In this document: positions 42,176-49,617 of the stretch, piece by piece
How the letters are laid out: each line of letters opens with the position of its first letter
How positions within the stretch are numbered: the stretch's first letter is position 1
Assembly (NCBI GenBank): GCA_017887425.1
Contig: JAGHHZ010000031.1
Span: 16,019-80,018 of the forward strand
DNA: 64,000 nt
From: Bacilli bacterium
Lineage (GTDB): Bacteria > Bacillota_I > Bacilli_A > RF39 > UBA660
Direction: 5' to 3'
The notes under the pieces: generated by a model
The model's input: only the letters and a program-made list of their open reading frames with translations
Databases searched by the model: none
Told to the model about the DNA's origin: nothing
Position numbers and translations under genes: made by a program

Positions 42176-44134
42176 ATGAAAAATAAAAAAATGTGGGTTT
42201 GGATTATTTTAGTGGTTGTTATATTAGCTATTATTTTATTTATTTTACTTAATAATAACAATCAAAATGTTGATGAAGTTGCTATTAGTGAAAGTTTAAT
42301 AACCGGTCAATATAACAAAGAAAAGGATTTTAAAACAGAAGGTTATACTATTGATAACCCAAATGTTATCTTAAACCCTTATGGTAATTCACCTTTGACT
42401 GCTTTGATATTGTTTGAAACAACCGAAGAAGTAAGTCCAACAGTAACAATTGTTGGTAAAGACGAAAATACTACTTTTACACATACTTTTAATGCTAGTC
42501 AAGAACATTTGTTATCAATCTATGGTTTATATGCAGATTATAATAATGAAGTTATAATCGAATATGAAGTTGATGGTGAAACTATTAGTAAAACTGTCAA
42601 TATTCAAACAGAGGAATTACCAGATGATTTTATTTTACCAACGAGGGTTGAAGCTGATAAAGAAAACTTAGATAATCAACTTTATTTCTTCACACCATCA
42701 AGTAGTGGTTATACTTGTGCTTATGATGTTAATGGTGATGTTAGGTGGTATTTAACCAATTATGCTTTATGGAAAATTGATCGTTTAGAAAATGGACATT
42801 TATTAGTTAGTACAGAAAGATTAGTTAATCCACCATATTATATGACAGGTTTATATGAGATGGATTTATTAGGTAAAATCTATGTTGAATATAGTCTTCC
42901 TGGAGGATATCATCATGATTATTATGAAATGGAAAATGGTAACCTATTAATAGCTAGTGATGATTTTAATAATGCTAAAGGAACTGTCGAAGATTATATT
43001 GTTGAATTAGATCGTGAAACAGGTGAAATTGTTAAAACATTTGACTTGAAAAATGTTTTAAACATGAGTGATGGTAAAAGTGAAAATTGGACTGATTATG
43101 ATTGGTTCCACAATAATTCAGTATGGTATGATGAAAATACTAATTCGATAACTTTATCTGGTCGTCATCAAGATGCGGTTATTAATATCGATTATGAAAC
43201 AGGCGAATTAAATTGGATAATTGGTGATCCAACAAACTGGAGCGAAGAATATCAAAAATATTTCTTTACCCCAATTGGTGACGATTTTGAATGGCAATGG
43301 AGTCAACACGCAGCCATGATTACACCAGAAGGTTATGTCTTTATTTTAGATAATGGTAATAATAAATCAAAAATAAAAGAAGAATATGTTCCGGCTAGTG
43401 AAAGTTACACTAGAGGTGTTATGTATAAAATTGATACTGACAATATGACGATTGAACAAATATGGCAATACGGTAAAGAAAGAGGAAGTGATTATTATTC
43501 ACCTTACATTTCTGATGTTGATTATTTAGATGCTAATCACTATATTGTTCATTCAGGAGGAATTGCTTATAAAGATGGTGAAGTATTAAATCAACCTGCA
43601 GGATTAGCTGGTGCTGATGAATTAAAAAGTATTACGACCGAATTACTTAACGATGAAATTATTTTTGAAATCGAATTACCTACTAATAATTATCGTGTTG
43701 AAAAAATGGATTTATATGTCGATAATGAACAATTAGTATTAGGCCAAGCTAAAAAAATCGGTTCACTTGGCGAAACAGAAAGTAAGCAAAGTTTATCATT
43801 AATTTTAAATGCTAAAAATCCTGATGAAGAATATAATAATCACAATATTACATTTACTAAGGAAGATGATCGTTTAGTAATTAATGGAACATTTAAAAGA
43901 GGAACTGATGTTGAAATAATTTTAGCTAAAAATATGATGGTTAATACTTATGATTGGCGAATAAGTAAAAAACCATATACAGCTTTATGCGTCGATATAT
44001 TTACTGAAGAAGAAAATGAAAATGGACTTAATACTAATAAATATATTAATAGTGAAGGCTTAAGTGGTAAATATTCTATTTATGTTAAAATAGAGGGAAC
44101 ACTTTATAACACTTTAAAATCAGTTGAATTTTAA
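42176..44134 (+). CDS. aryl-sulfate sulfotransferase (ASST)-like beta-propeller protein, membrane-anchored or secreted
   Basis: N-terminal TM/signal sequence. WFHNNSVWYDENTNSITLSGRHQDAVINIDYETGELNWIIGDP resembles the ASST family core. Confidence 0.6.
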   Translation: MKNKKMWVWIILVVVILAIILFILLNNNNQNVDEVAISESLITGQYNKEKDFKTEGYTIDNPNVILNPYGNSPLTALILFETTEEVSPTVTIVGKDENTTFTHTFNASQEHLLSIYGLYADYNNEVIIEYEVDGETISKTVNIQTEELPDDFILPTRVEADKENLDNQLYFFTPSSSGYTCAYDVNGDVRWYLTNYALWKIDRLENGHLLVSTERLVNPPYYMTGLYEMDLLGKIYVEYSLPGGYHHDYYEMENGNLLIASDDFNNAKGTVEDYIVELDRETGEIVKTFDLKNVLNMSDGKSENWTDYDWFHNNSVWYDENTNSITLSGRHQDAVINIDYETGELNWIIGDPTNWSEEYQKYFFTPIGDDFEWQWSQHAAMITPEGYVFILDNGNNKSKIKEEYVPASESYTRGVMYKIDTDNMTIEQIWQYGKERGSDYYSPYISDVDYLDANHYIVHSGGIAYKDGEVLNQPAGLAGADELKSITTELLNDEIIFEIELPTNNYRVEKMDLYVDNEQLVLGQAKKIGSLGETESKQSLSLILNAKNPDEEYNNHNITFTKEDDRLVINGTFKRGTDVEIILAKNMMVNTYDWRISKKPYTALCVDIFTEEENENGLNTNKYINSEGLSGKYSIYVKIEGTLYNTLKSVEF

Positions 44135-44860: not shown

Positions 44861-45925
44861 ATGATTTACAGAAATACATATGTCGAAATTAATTTAAAAA
44901 ATATCAAAGAAAATGTAAAAACAATAATTAATAATTATCCTGGATATAAATATTATTTTGGTGTTGTAAAAGCCGATTGTTATGGCCATTTCAGTAATAA
45001 AGTAGTTAAATCTATAATAGATGGTGGTTGTAATTATTTAGCCGTATCTAGTTTAGAAGAAGCTCTATCAATAAGAAAAAGTATTAAAAATATTCCTATC
45101 TTATGTTTAGGAATAATTTCATCTAAATATTTAGATATTTGTGTAAACAATGATATTGCGATAACTATTCCTAGTTTAGAATATTATAATGAACTAGAAA
45201 AAAACAATATTTCTAATTTAAAAGTTCATTTAAAAGTTGATACTGGAATGAAACGGCTTGGGATCGATAATAAAAAAGATTTAGAAAAAGTATATAATAA
45301 AATAAGGAATAATAAAAATATTTTTCTTGAAGGAATATATACCCATATTTATAAAGCAAATGATAAAGAAATAACTGAAAGACAGTTTGAACAATTTAAA
45401 CAATTAACAGAAAACATTGATTTAAAAACTATTCCTATCGTTCATATTACTGCTAGTGAAGCAACTGTTTTATATCCCAAATTACCTTTTGTTAATGGTT
45501 GTAGATTAGGTATTATTATGTATGGCCTTACTTCTAAATCTTTGCCACTTAAGTCAACATTTAAATTAATTAGTGAAGTTATTTTAATTAAGAATTTAAA
45601 TCCCGGAGATACAGTTGGTTACGATGGAACTTATCAAGCTAAAGAAAAAGAAAAAATAGCTATTGTTCCAATTGGCTATGGCGATGGGATTATAAGAGCA
45701 AATAAAGGAAGAAATGTTTATATTAATAATAAAGAATATGAAATTATAGGTAATGTTTGTATGGATATGTTATTTGTAAAAATAGATGATAATGTTAAAA
45801 TTGGCGATAAAGCAGAAGTGATTAAAGATATCGATCATATTAAAAAAATAGCTAAACATTTAAATACTATCGAATATGAAGTTATTTGCAATATAGGTAA
45901 AAGAATACCTAGAATATATAAATAA
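44861..45925 (+). CDS. alr: alanine racemase
   Basis: ATG at 44861, 5 nt after AAAGGTGA. PLP-lysine motif GVVKADCYGH. C-terminal GNVCMDM block. Confidence 0.85.
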   Translation: MIYRNTYVEINLKNIKENVKTIINNYPGYKYYFGVVKADCYGHFSNKVVKSIIDGGCNYLAVSSLEEALSIRKSIKNIPILCLGIISSKYLDICVNNDIAITIPSLEYYNELEKNNISNLKVHLKVDTGMKRLGIDNKKDLEKVYNKIRNNKNIFLEGIYTHIYKANDKEITERQFEQFKQLTENIDLKTIPIVHITASEATVLYPKLPFVNGCRLGIIMYGLTSKSLPLKSTFKLISEVILIKNLNPGDTVGYDGTYQAKEKEKIAIVPIGYGDGIIRANKGRNVYINNKEYEIIGNVCMDMLFVKIDDNVKIGDKAEVIKDIDHIKKIAKHLNTIEYEVICNIGKRIPRIYK

Positions 45926-45928
45926 TAT

Positions 45929-45957
45929 TTGACACACCTAAAATTTAATGATATAAT
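45929..45957 (+). promoter_or_regulatory. consensus sigma-A promoter TTGACA-17-TGaTATAAT
   Basis: -35 at 45929-45934 and -10 at 45952-45957. Starts 3 nt after the alr stop. Confidence 0.65.
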
Positions 45958-45980
45958 CAAGGCGTTAAGGAGAGATTATT

Positions 45981-46028
45981 ATGAAAAAATTAAATAGACA
46001 ACATCATCATAATAGTCGCACTTGTTAA
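45981..46028 (+). CDS. 15-aa leader peptide MKKLNRQHHHNSRTC with three consecutive His codons
   Basis: AAGGAGAG RBS 6 nt upstream. CAT CAT CAT at 46002-46010. Located in the hisS leader. Confidence 0.45.
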   Translation: MKKLNRQHHHNSRTC

Positions 46029-46115
46029 TACATAAAATTATGTAGGCGCAAGTGCTATTTGTGTTGCTTGTTGCCTGTAAATATAAAACTATACAGGCAA
46101 CTGTATAGTTTTTTT
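46018..46115 (+). promoter_or_regulatory. candidate transcription attenuator (four mutually exclusive stems ending in a terminator)
   Basis: Stem 1: 46018-24 with 46049-55. Stem 2: 46045-52 with 46067-75. Stem 3: 46071-79 with 46092-100. Stem 4 (terminator): CTATACAG-GCAA-CTGTATAG at 46089-46108, followed by T7 at 46109-46115. Confidence 0.5.
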
Positions 46116-46126
46116 AGGAGGAATTT

Positions 46127-47431
46127 ATGAAAAGAAAAATCGAATTAAAAAATGTCAAAGGAACTTATGATTATTTACCAGAACAACAAAAAATTAGAAA
46201 TTATATCAATGATACTTTAAAAGAAGTTTTTGAAAAATATGGTTATCAACCTTTAGAAACACCTATTTTATGTTATTACGACTTATTAGCTGGTAAATAT
46301 GATGAAAGTAATGATATATTAAATGAAATATACAAATTAACTGATCAAGGAAACAGAAATTTAGGATTAAGATATGATTTAACAGTACCTTTTGCTAAAT
46401 GTATCGCTATAACTAAAGATTTAAGATTACCATTCAAACGATATGAAATCGGTCGAGTATTTAGAGATGGACCAGTAAAAACAGGAAGAGATCGAGAATT
46501 TATTCAATGTGATGTCGATGTTGTCGGTATTTCTGGTCAAATGATCGAAGCTGAAATAATCTCATTATTTCTTGATGGATGTGACAAATTAGATATTGAT
46601 GTTTTAATTAAATATAACAGTCGTAATTTAATGTCAGGTCTTATTAAAGAACAAAATATCGCTGATGAATTAGTTTCTAGTGTTATTACAATTATTGATA
46701 AATTAGAAAAAATAAGTGAAGCTGAAATAATTGAAGAGTTCAATAAAATTGGTGTATTACAACAAACAGCATTAAATTTATTAAATATATTTAAATTAAA
46801 TATTAATGAATTAAATAAGTTATATGAAAATACTAATAATGAATTAATTAAAAAAGGCTTAGAAGAAATTAAAGAATTAGAATCATATATTGTTAAGTTA
46901 GGTATTCAAGACAAAACTAAATTTGTTGCTACTTTAGCTCGCGGTCAAGAATATTATACTGGTAATGTTTTTGAAGCATATTCTAAAGAATTAACTTGTA
47001 GCATTGGTGGCGGTGGTCGTTATGACAATATGATTACTGACTTTATCAATGATGGTAATGCGTATCCGGCTGTTGGAATCAGTTTCGGATTGTCCGCAAT
47101 CTATGAAATATTAAGAAAAAGAGAACAATTTAAAAATAAATCTTTAATTGATATTTATGTTATACCGATGAATACTAAAAAAGAAAGTTTAATTTTAGCT
47201 AACAACCTAAGAAAATTAGGTTATAAAGTCGATATTGAAATGAATGATCGAAAACTAAAGAAAAGTTTTGAATTTGCTAATCGAGAAAACATCCCTTATG
47301 TTATTGTTTTGGGTGAAGATGAAGTCAATAATAATTATTTCAATTTAAAAAATATGATTACTGGTGAACAAGAAAAAATAGATATCAATGATTTAGAACA
47401 AATTAAAAAAATTATAGAAAAAAATCTATAA
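46127..47431 (+). CDS. hisS: histidine--tRNA ligase
   Basis: Class II motifs: RYDLTVPFAK, FRDGPVKTGRDREFIQCDVD, GGGGRYDNM. Confidence 0.92.
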   Translation: MKRKIELKNVKGTYDYLPEQQKIRNYINDTLKEVFEKYGYQPLETPILCYYDLLAGKYDESNDILNEIYKLTDQGNRNLGLRYDLTVPFAKCIAITKDLRLPFKRYEIGRVFRDGPVKTGRDREFIQCDVDVVGISGQMIEAEIISLFLDGCDKLDIDVLIKYNSRNLMSGLIKEQNIADELVSSVITIIDKLEKISEAEIIEEFNKIGVLQQTALNLLNIFKLNINELNKLYENTNNELIKKGLEEIKELESYIVKLGIQDKTKFVATLARGQEYYTGNVFEAYSKELTCSIGGGGRYDNMITDFINDGNAYPAVGISFGLSAIYEILRKREQFKNKSLIDIYVIPMNTKKESLILANNLRKLGYKVDIEMNDRKLKKSFEFANRENIPYVIVLGEDEVNNNYFNLKNMITGEQEKIDINDLEQIKKIIEKNL

Positions 47432-48097: not shown

Positions 48098-48163
48098 ATA
48101 ATAATGGTATAAAGTCAATTTAATCACATATATTTTACTAACGATATGGAAAGTAGGGAATAT

Positions 48164-48556
48164 ATGGAAAAAATAGATATTATAAAAAGTATTACTAGTA
48201 GGACAGGAGGAGAAATTTATTTAGGCGTAGTCGGAGCTGTTAGAACAGGTAAATCAACTTTTATTAAAAAAGTAATTGAAAATTTAGTTGTACCTAATAT
48301 TGAAGATGAATATGAAAGAAAAAGATGTCTAGATGAAATTCCTCAATCGGCTCAAGGTAAAACTATTATGACAACTGAGCCTAAATTTGTTCCAAGTAAT
48401 GCTGCTAAAATAAGAATAGAAGACTTTACAGCTAGTGTAAAGTTAATTGACTGTGTGGGATATGTCATACCAGAAGCTAAAGGTTATGAGGATGAAAATG
48501 GGCCAAGAAAAGTAAGAACACCGTGGGAAGAACCCCAAATAGTGATACCACTATAA
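48164..48556 (+). pseudogene. spoIVA: spoIVA 5-prime fragment (about 125 of ~490 codons), interrupted by an inserted element
   Basis: MEKIDIIKSITSRTGGEIYLGVVGAVRTGKSTFIKK...LPQSAQGKTIMTTEPKFVP...LIDCVGY...AKGYEDENGPRKVRTPWEEP follows Bacillus SpoIVA nearly residue for residue. It then diverges (QIVIPL, stop) instead of continuing IPFxEAAEIGT. Confidence 0.8.
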
Positions 48557-48645
48557 AAAGTGTGTAAAAGCCTTATTTTATAAGGAATTGCAATATTAAC
48601 TTGTTAGTCATTTTTATAAAATTTTGTAAAGAAAGTGAGATTTAT

Positions 48646-49617
48646 ATGAATGAACTAAACAATGTTATAAATGATGAACTAATTGATTTATTGATTAAAT
48701 ATCGCAACATAACTGGTTATTTGTTCCCTATTGGAAAAGTCAAATCTATAAATAATGAAGAGTTAATTAAGCGTATAAAAATATGTATATCAGAAAAAAA
48801 GAGATATGATTTAAAATTATTTAAATTAAATAATATACAAATTATGACGGATGATGTTTTTGAAAAAATAATTCCTTTAATAAAGCAAAATATGGAAGAA
48901 GTTAACTATGACTATATTAACAAATCAAAAGAAATTATAAATATAATCAATTTAAGGAAATGTGGGAAAAAATTTAGTTTTTCTGAACATTTAAGTGCAT
49001 TAATATTTACTTTACTTAATAATAATCGTTGGGGAGATACAAATATAAAAGAAAATAAAAGTAAAATTTATTCTATCTTTCATGACTTTGACAAAAATTA
49101 TTTAAAATTAGTTGACCCAAATGAATTAATAAATGAATTAAAAAAATTGCACTGTAGCAATCCAGCAATAAAGAAACAACTTTATGCTCTTTCTTACAAT
49201 ATAAATATATTAGAAAAAATAGAAGAAGAACATAACAGCTTGGATGAATTTATATTAAAAAATGATCCCAATGATATTGCGATATGTTTTAGTGAAGGAA
49301 AATATAAGTTGAAACAAGTTGGTAAAGCTATTACTTTTGATTATTTGAAAATGGTAGGTATTGATTGTTGTAAATATAGTATTCAAATCGGACGATTATT
49401 TGGGAAAAATAGATTAGCTATTGTATCTAATGAAATAGCTACATTTGAACAAATATTATCTATAATAAAGAAATTATCAAAAATCAATAAAATAAGCGAA
49501 ATAGAGATAGAATTGATTTTACAACAATTTTGTTTATCAAAATCTGCTAATATTTGTGGTGAATTTCCACAGTGTGAAAAATGTAGACTAAAAAGTATAT
49601 GTAATTATAACAAATAA
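48646..49617 (+). CDS. HhH-GPD/endonuclease III-like protein with a [4Fe-4S] cluster motif and an extra N-terminal domain
   Basis: C-terminal CGEFPQCEKCRLKSIC has the Cys-x6-Cys-x2-Cys-x5-Cys spacing of the EndoIII/MutY cluster loop. LKQVGKAITFDYLKMVG resembles a hairpin-helix-hairpin. The ATG at 48646 is preferred over the TTG at 48601. Confidence 0.55.
   Translation: MNELNNVINDELIDLLIKYRNITGYLFPIGKVKSINNEELIKRIKICISEKKRYDLKLFKLNNIQIMTDDVFEKIIPLIKQNMEEVNYDYINKSKEIINIINLRKCGKKFSFSEHLSALIFTLLNNNRWGDTNIKENKSKIYSIFHDFDKNYLKLVDPNELINELKKLHCSNPAIKKQLYALSYNINILEKIEEEHNSLDEFILKNDPNDIAICFSEGKYKLKQVGKAITFDYLKMVGIDCCKYSIQIGRLFGKNRLAIVSNEIATFEQILSIIKKLSKINKISEIEIELILQQFCLSKSANICGEFPQCEKCRLKSICNYNK

Follow-up and report, generated by a model that had tools for sequence, protein, structure and literature searches.

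How is the only histidyl-tRNA synthetase (HisRS) gene of an uncultured gut bacterium adjusted to the supply of charged tRNA-His? The question is raised by the hisS locus in a 64,000-nucleotide (nt) stretch of DNA from a Bacilli bacterium (assembly GCA_017887425.1, contig JAGHHZ010000031.1, positions 16,019 to 80,018; hereafter the window, with all coordinates counted from its first letter). A preliminary description of the window had proposed that hisS is controlled by a leader peptide with consecutive His codons instead of a T-box, the mechanism usually expected for aminoacyl-tRNA synthetase genes in Bacillota. Our analysis makes it very likely that the hisS leader is a ribosome-mediated leader-peptide transcription attenuator, set by the supply of charged tRNA-His.

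The source organism is a gut member of the GTDB class Bacilli, in a genus that includes 'Candidatus Faecisoma merdavium', with a genome of 1.24 Mb and 26.6% G+C and an assembly that is 88% complete. The hisS product (434 aa) scores 344.7 bits with TIGR00442 (cut-off 286.75) and 500.9 bits with its best model, NF009085/PRK12420; it has the C-terminal anticodon-binding domain, and its gene is the one HisRS gene counted in the genome. The hisD gene was not found in this 88%-complete assembly, while the same search recovered hisD in 14/14 control genomes, suggesting that the organism is probably a histidine auxotroph. Ten T-boxes were detected elsewhere in the genome by covariance model (CM) search, five of them preceding aspS, argS, pheS, ileS and serS, though the same model (RF00230) had no match in the window at the gathering score and none in 45850-46250 at E<=10, and the earlier statement that the hisS leader has no T-box therefore stands. 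No relevant Rfam family matched the leader (45850-46250, E<=10), the enterobacterial His_leader RF00514 gave no match in it at E<=10, and three Clostridia leaders of the family described below had no relevant Rfam match, RF00514 included, at the gathering score.

The elements of the leader all lie on the forward strand. The promoter, the Shine-Dalgarno-led 15-codon His open reading frame (ORF), the four stems and the terminator were all found by sequence check at the coordinates where the preliminary description had placed them. The promoter consists of TTGACA (45929-34), a 17-nt spacer and an extended -10 element, TGaTATAAT, ending at 45957; with a 12/12 consensus score it is the top-scoring promoter of the region and the sole 12/12 site across the 4.5 kb scanned. 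It is followed by a Shine-Dalgarno sequence read as AAGGAGAG (45967-45974) and by the leader ORF (45981-46028; ATG at 45981, TAA at 46026-28), recognised from the sequence and from relatives, with the 15-codon peptide MKKLNRQHHHNSRTC. The triplet CAT CAT CAT at 46002-46010 is the proposed sensor, kept as HHH or HHHH in the orthologous loci described below.

Four helices follow, of which P1, P3 and P4 were assigned from energy and covariation and P2 from covariation and stepwise folding. P1 (46018-46055) pairs arm A (46018-25) with arm B (46048-55) and encloses an inner hairpin, P1a (46029-34/46039-44); the leader stop codon sits inside the P1 internal loop. The anti-antiterminator P2 (46041-46079) pairs 46041-52 (arm B) with 46067-79 (segment C), with T46071 bulged; the pairing described earlier for this stem is present, and only its extent had to be corrected, to 12 pairs. 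The antiterminator P3 (46071-46100) joins segment C (46071-79) to segment D (46092-100), which is made of the upper part of the terminator 5' arm plus the terminator loop. P4 (46085-46115) is the intrinsic terminator AAAACTATACAG-GCAA-CTGTATAGTTTT, with the hairpin at 46085-46112 and T7 at 46109-15. P3 and P4 are mutually exclusive, with 46092-46100 common to both. The hisS gene (46116-47431, identified by profile matches) has its Shine-Dalgarno sequence AGGAGG at 46116-21 and its ATG at 46127; the gap between T7 and this Shine-Dalgarno sequence is 0 nt, and T7 ends 11 nt 5' of the ATG. The terminator and hisS leave no space between them for a promoter, and all hisS transcripts must therefore cross the terminator.

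The leader folds with -44.1 kcal/mol (z = -4.4 against dinucleotide shuffles), and the helix energies are -17.2 (P1+P1a), -9.2 (P2), -11.1 (P3) and -14.0 kcal/mol (P4). Against shuffled spacers the B:C duplex has z = -3.2 and the C:D duplex z = -4.8 in the window's own clade. Only these window-clade values were used, since the automatic choice of P1 (the most stable hairpin near the stop) took P2, or hairpins extended by the P0 pairing described below, in the Clostridia clades, making the B:X and X:D z-scores meaningless there.

We infer translation of the leader ORF, the geometry of the stall and His-dependent read-through in vivo, and propose the following mechanism. The consensus promoter would start the transcript, and the 15-codon ORF would be translated as RNA polymerase advances. 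When His-tRNA(His) is scarce, the ribosome would wait with His codon 1 or 2 in the A site, its 3' edge at about 46014-46017, short of arm A, so that P1 (A:B) could form and hold arm B. With B held, segment C would be free to pair with segment D when this is made (P3), the terminator could not nucleate, and transcription would read through into hisS. When His-tRNA(His) is plentiful, the ribosome would reach the TAA at 46026 and cover arm A to about 46038; B would then pair with C (P2), leaving D free for segment E (P4), with termination at T7. If the ribosome is absent, the P0 pairing may sequester C and lead to termination, as in the trp and his operons. The outcome would be a homeostatic loop in which poor tRNA-His charging leads to more HisRS; we propose such a loop since the genome seems to be without histidine biosynthesis and to have one hisS.

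The comparison with relatives covered the DNA 5' of orthologous hisS genes, plus 80 named genome records. The His mini-ORF that the preliminary description had suggested looking for upstream of hisS is present, with conserved stems: 36 of about 85 orthologous hisS loci have a Shine-Dalgarno-led HHH/HHHH mini-ORF and then an intrinsic terminator. The carriers are RF39-type Bacilli, one Anaeroplasmataceae metagenome-assembled genome (MAG) and many Clostridia MAGs, and down to 48-58% HisS identity they keep the mini-ORF, the Shine-Dalgarno sequence, the four stems and the location of the stop with respect to stem 1. A Shine-Dalgarno-like motif 5-10 nt 5' of the start codon was detected in 36/36 leaders, as was an intact frame whose stop has a fixed position with respect to P1; the terminator has an equivalent location in all family leaders. 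The leader peptides of the genus include MKKLINHHHNSRTC (locus L042), MTNLNRQHHHSNRTC, MKKLIRQHHHNNCTC, MKKLFSNMHHHCNSYLSF and MINLFTKQHHHFNSHLSLQH; that of the Anaeroplasmataceae MAG is MNKLINLWQHHHSNLRLLIRH, and the Clostridia MAGs have M..IFLNQLHHHRRSL in a large clade and ..ILNQLHHHHKQRL in another. The His codons vary synonymously between CAT and CAC, the peptide is variable outside the His run, and the codon indel in L042 preserves the reading frame.

The His codons have a second potential role in RNA pairing. In the minimum free energy (MFE) fold of the full-length, ribosome-free RNA, 45994-46016 (the His-codon region) pairs with 46057-46078 (spacer and segment C), prolonging P1 and sequestering C; we call this pairing P0. 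Over 35 leaders the P0 duplex has a median z of -3.2, with 28 of the 35 below -2, and in the window it has -12.5 kcal/mol and z = -2.0, so that by modelling P0 appears clear across the wider family and marginal in the window. The HHHH codons of L107-L115 pair with the conserved 'AUGGUGGUG' segment; in the large Clostridia clade (L070, L082-L103) the IFLN codons AAUAUUUUUAAAC pair with GUUUAAAAAUAUU, and CGUAGG with CCUACG. The ..IFLNQLHHHRRSL peptide of this clade looks conserved because its codons pair with downstream RNA, and the constraint on it is probably one of RNA pairing, not of the peptide.

These pairings suit a reading in which the mini-ORF is untranslated, the leader being riboswitch-like or protein- or tRNA-binding, and the CAY codons are kept for pairing with a GU-rich 'anti-His' segment (P0). 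It would account for P0-type pairing in most family members (the median z and the 28/35 given above), for the conserved peptide 'IFLNQL' of one clade, explained by RNA pairing, and for the scaffold that persists in L055-L057 without the His run. We consider it very improbable, since a well-spaced Shine-Dalgarno sequence, a start, an intact frame and a P1-fixed stop are kept in 36/36 leaders, codon indels keep the frame (L042), CAT and CAC interchange synonymously, and no Rfam family, the T-box included, was matched. The hallmark of leader-peptide control is a run of codons for the very amino acid that the downstream synthetase uses.

An additional 5' hairpin of 11 bp is formed in the window between 45974-45984 (GAUUAUUAUGA, the start-codon region) and 46007-46017 (the last His codon and the following bases). 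Only the five closest relatives form it as well, with solely G-U-preserving changes, and in the window it competes with P0. In our models this hairpin could gate leader translation, and the no-translation state of the window leader may be either P0 termination or read-through (P1+P3).

The attenuator reading was next confronted with folding under ribosome masks, in which ribosome coverage extends 12 nt 3' of the A-site codon's first base; we assume that this textbook footprint holds here. With the ribosome on His1 or His2, constrained folding left P1 intact and the antiterminator favoured. The mean pair probability of the P4 stem (full-length equilibrium, masked) was 0.03 for His1, 0.04 for His2 and 0.93 for the stop. 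Stepwise MFE folding with arm A free gave P1 and then P3, until the 3' end passed 46108; with arm A masked it gave P2 once segment C emerged, and finally P2+P4. Constrained and stepwise folding thus reproduced the logic, set out in the preliminary description, that a stall on the His codons leads to read-through and arrival at the stop to termination, and the switch is thermodynamically plausible. Full-length equilibrium folding was dropped as a family-wide test, a clean switch being seen only in the window and its close relatives, and stepwise and truncated folds were substituted for it.

Several observations weigh against the attenuator reading. The stall geometry would depend on textbook ribosome footprints. 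Before the terminator 3' arm is made, equilibrium folding with arm A masked still gives P3, and in such truncated RNA arm B pairs not with C but with the GU-rich spacer next to it; discrimination therefore requires P2 to persist in a kinetic trap over a few tens of nt. For many family members the high stability of the terminator abolishes the switch in full-length equilibrium folds; absent equilibrium switching is usual for attenuators, and thermodynamics alone proves nothing. The clade L055-L057, without the His run, indicates that the scaffold can outlast the sensor. The element is evidently dispensable, for in many close relatives the same promoter is present but the attenuator is not. Finally, stalling with the A site at His3 would melt 3 bp of P1, and the P4 stem probability is then 0.77.

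The His3 result is also the starting point of a reading with inverted polarity, in which a stalled ribosome, especially at His3, enters arm A and leads to B:C pairing and the terminator, so that starvation would lower hisS transcription and abundant His-tRNA would raise it. The modelled edge at His3 is 46020, removing 3/8 P1 pairs, and in the Clostridia clades the last His codon is just 4-7 nt from arm A. For a starved ribosome, however, His1 would be the first halt, with P1 unbroken and a P4 probability of 0.03. Since arm A is wholly masked once a ribosome has reached the stop, termination would follow in both states, leaving no regulation. The stop at or inside P1 throughout the family is sensible only if reaching the stop means OFF, and inverted polarity would be opposite to all known logic of aminoacyl-tRNA synthetase control, the T-box and pheST. 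We regard this polarity as very unlikely, slightly more so than an untranslated mini-ORF.

Among the leaders there is covariation for both of the alternative folds. Two alignments were used, A1 with 12 sequences and A2 with 28 sequences across all clades, the published hisZ attenuators included; MAFFT misaligns segment C between clades, so P2/P3 covariation was counted on A1 only, not on A2 or A3. State I (P1+P1a+P3) has 88.4% of cells paired and 10 double-change pairs in A1, a value reached in 0/500 shuffles, with slid controls at <=50%. State II (P2+P4) has 92.7% of cells paired and 9 double-change pairs in A1 (0/500 shuffles; slid controls <=46%). The shuffle results are counts and not probabilities, the sequences being related, yet the signal is spread over several independent clades. 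By helix, 95.8% of P1 cells are paired in A1, and 94.2%, with 28 double-change cells, in A2; in A1 the values are 90% for P2 (double changes in 6/10 core pairs), 82% for P3 (double changes in 4/7 pairs) and 97.9% for P4. A three-way covariation of B, C and D is seen at 46047/46073/46098, where the window has C/G/C and L055 has T/A/T; L055 also has an A insertion that pairs with the equivalent of T46071, the base bulged in P2 of the window.

The His run is also rare in its context. The genome has 201 (CAY)3 runs on both strands, 6 of them in short ORFs with a Shine-Dalgarno sequence; the other five of these six are antisense within long ORFs, and the hisS leader is the sole intergenic HHH mini-ORF of the genome. 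The remaining idea of a fortuitous arrangement, in which hairpin and T7 are the alr terminator and the mini-ORF and stems arose by chance in 27% G+C DNA, is hardly credible: AT-rich genomes do abound in short ORFs and weak hairpins, and a simple terminator scan did not flag this hairpin (under 3 G-C pairs in the counted stem), yet the 12/12 promoter lies between alr and the terminator with none between the terminator and hisS, conservation and covariation extend across many genera whose loci are not assembly duplicates (HisS 48-98% identical to that of the window), no second intergenic mini-ORF of this kind exists in the genome, and the family CM gives exactly one match per genome, always at hisS in the genus, so that the comparative data in practice refute it.

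The control of HisRS genes by His leaders has precedents in Bacillota. Naville and Gautheret 2010 (Genome Biol 11:R97, PMC2965389) described a His leader before the hisS paralog (hisS*) and hisZ of the B. cereus group, named it a histidine leader peptide replacing the T-box, as a computational prediction, and gave the hisS*/hisZ leader sequences in Table S5. Like the window leader, the B. cereus-group hisS*/hisZ leaders have a short ORF with three consecutive His codons, hairpins and a terminator before a HisRS-family gene, and their A:B, B:C, C:D design is the same as in the window family. The B. anthracis/B. cereus hisZ and hisS* leaders align with the window family and share the blocks CAACTnCATCATCAT, GTAGGTGCAAGgG and TGTACCTAC, as well as GTAGGTGCAAG and sequence around the His codons; MAFFT shifts arm A of the two Bacillus rows by 2 nt, and their P1 was therefore checked by eye only. 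In Bacillus it is an additional hisS copy that carries the element, the main hisS having retained its T-box, whereas in the window it is on the sole hisS. The stop codon in Bacillus lies one codon after HHH, before arm A; in the window it is found at the 3' edge of arm A, five codons later. The elements of Bacillus and of the window are alike known from computational prediction.

Candidate His attenuators of hisZ-led his operons were reported by Ashniev et al. 2022 (BMC Genomics 23:558, PMC9413887) in the B. cereus group, Peptostreptococcaceae/Lutispora and Erysipelotrichales. They resemble the window element in that a leader peptide with 3-5 His codons is combined with an 'attenuator hairpin' and with antiterminator and terminator structures, and the T. 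glycolicus and L. thermophila hisZ leaders (Ashniev 2022, Additional file 6) fit P1 with compensatory changes in A2. The Ashniev 2022 elements control histidine biosynthesis operons, whereas the window element precedes the synthetase gene in a genome in which hisD was not found. Leader-peptide attenuation in place of a T-box is thus supported for the window, although it is not unprecedented, His leaders having been predicted in 2010 and 2022. Judging by the sequence blocks and helices in common, the window element is homologous to the published hisS*/hisZ His leaders; it adds no new mechanism and belongs to a known, computationally predicted family.

The enterobacterial hisL leader (RF00514) works by the same principle, a stall on consecutive His codons deciding between antiterminator and terminator; it has no sequence or CM similarity to the window leader, and its target is biosynthesis, whereas the target in the window is hisS. 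In hisL, with its 7 His codons, there are six pairing segments, the first of which is masked by the stalled ribosome. In the window leader, with 3 His codons, the number of switching segments (A to E) is odd, which requires A to be left free by a stalled ribosome and masked by a terminating one. In E. coli the pheST synthetase gene is controlled by a leader peptide (pheM) rich in cognate codons; this case is from Proteobacteria, another amino acid is sensed, and the sequence is unrelated to the window leader. The T-box (RF00230) has the same role as the window leader, in that uncharged tRNA, or its consequence, raises synthetase transcription by antitermination. The T-box binds tRNA directly and needs no translation, whereas the window leader has no specifier loop, T-box sequence or CM match.

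What is modestly new here is that the sole hisS of a likely auxotroph is probably under His leader control, that the family is far more widely spread than published, that the element is rapidly gained, decayed and lost within one genus, and that there are hints of the module having moved to other genes. All stages are found in the genus: intact, sensor decayed, partly deleted, and absent behind the same promoter, which is shared by relatives including those without the attenuator. The stems are kept with the His run cut to one His (...IHQ-stop) in L055 and L057 and with no His (...IYQ-stop) in L056. In L043 (=L013) the ORF was removed by a deletion, and L015, L018, L019, L020 and L023 have the same promoter and then a plain short leader. 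These states within a single genus give a picture of the speed of attenuator gain and loss. The genus also has two hisS types, PRK12420-like and standard, about 30% identical, as noted from G001, G003 and L031-L036; some species have the standard type, and G001 and G003 seem to carry both. A T-box was absent from the scanned loci of both types.

The family CM matched 8/25 genomes of the genus, including the source, with one match per genome, always the hisS leader; this search of the 25 genomes detected no leaders other than those of hisS, and an nhmmer search with the scaffold minus the His codons found only the hisS leader in the source genome. A class-wide CM search matched at least 6/399 genomes, a count that is a floor and not a frequency, as 10 candidates were scored per genome; two matches precede hisS and one, in another family of the class, precedes a hisZ-like gene (L126), recalling the hisZ targets of Ashniev 2022. 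Two further matches, unexpected ones, come from sister genera of the same family: in L124 (390-1591, minus strand) the leader MFRVIHRHNNLHLLIRH precedes an M20 ArgE/DapE-family deacylase gene (below equivalog cut-offs), and in L121 (1-1593, minus strand) the leader MFKLILKQFHHHNNLHLLIRH is followed by an 86-aa ORF, a 225-aa ORF with a phosphoribosyltransferase domain and a SLOG cluster4 gene. These two leaders may hint at a histidine-limitation regulon. We offer only tentatively the wider idea, which we think rather doubtful, of a portable three-state His-tRNA sensor, in RF39-type Bacilli and many Clostridia, that controls the sole HisRS in reduced auxotrophs and was relocated in sister genera, forming an undescribed small regulon. 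Its states would be the free RNA (P0+P1+terminator), OFF; the ribosome on the His codons (P1+antiterminator), ON; and the ribosome at the stop (P2+terminator), OFF.

Ribosome-read leader peptides are, on this evidence, a real alternative to the T-box for synthetase control in Bacillota, beyond Proteobacteria. The family, earlier predicted in a few cultured groups, is extended to uncultured gut Bacillota where the sole HisRS is controlled. Rfam 15 does not contain it; an Rfam family could be started from the alignments and the CM, and would improve the annotation of many gut MAGs.

In the vicinity of hisS, the SpoIVA ATPase domain is represented by its first ~127 residues alone, encoded by the ORF at 48146-48556, and the next ORF after this fragment (48601-49617) is without a family match. 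Upstream of the hisS leader there is a six-tRNA cluster (Ser, Met, Asp, Phe, Arg, Pro), which has no tRNA-His gene, and then alr. Just 5' of the tRNA cluster, 42176-44134 encodes a 652-aa arylsulfotransferase (ASST, PF05935) with an N-terminal Ig-like domain.

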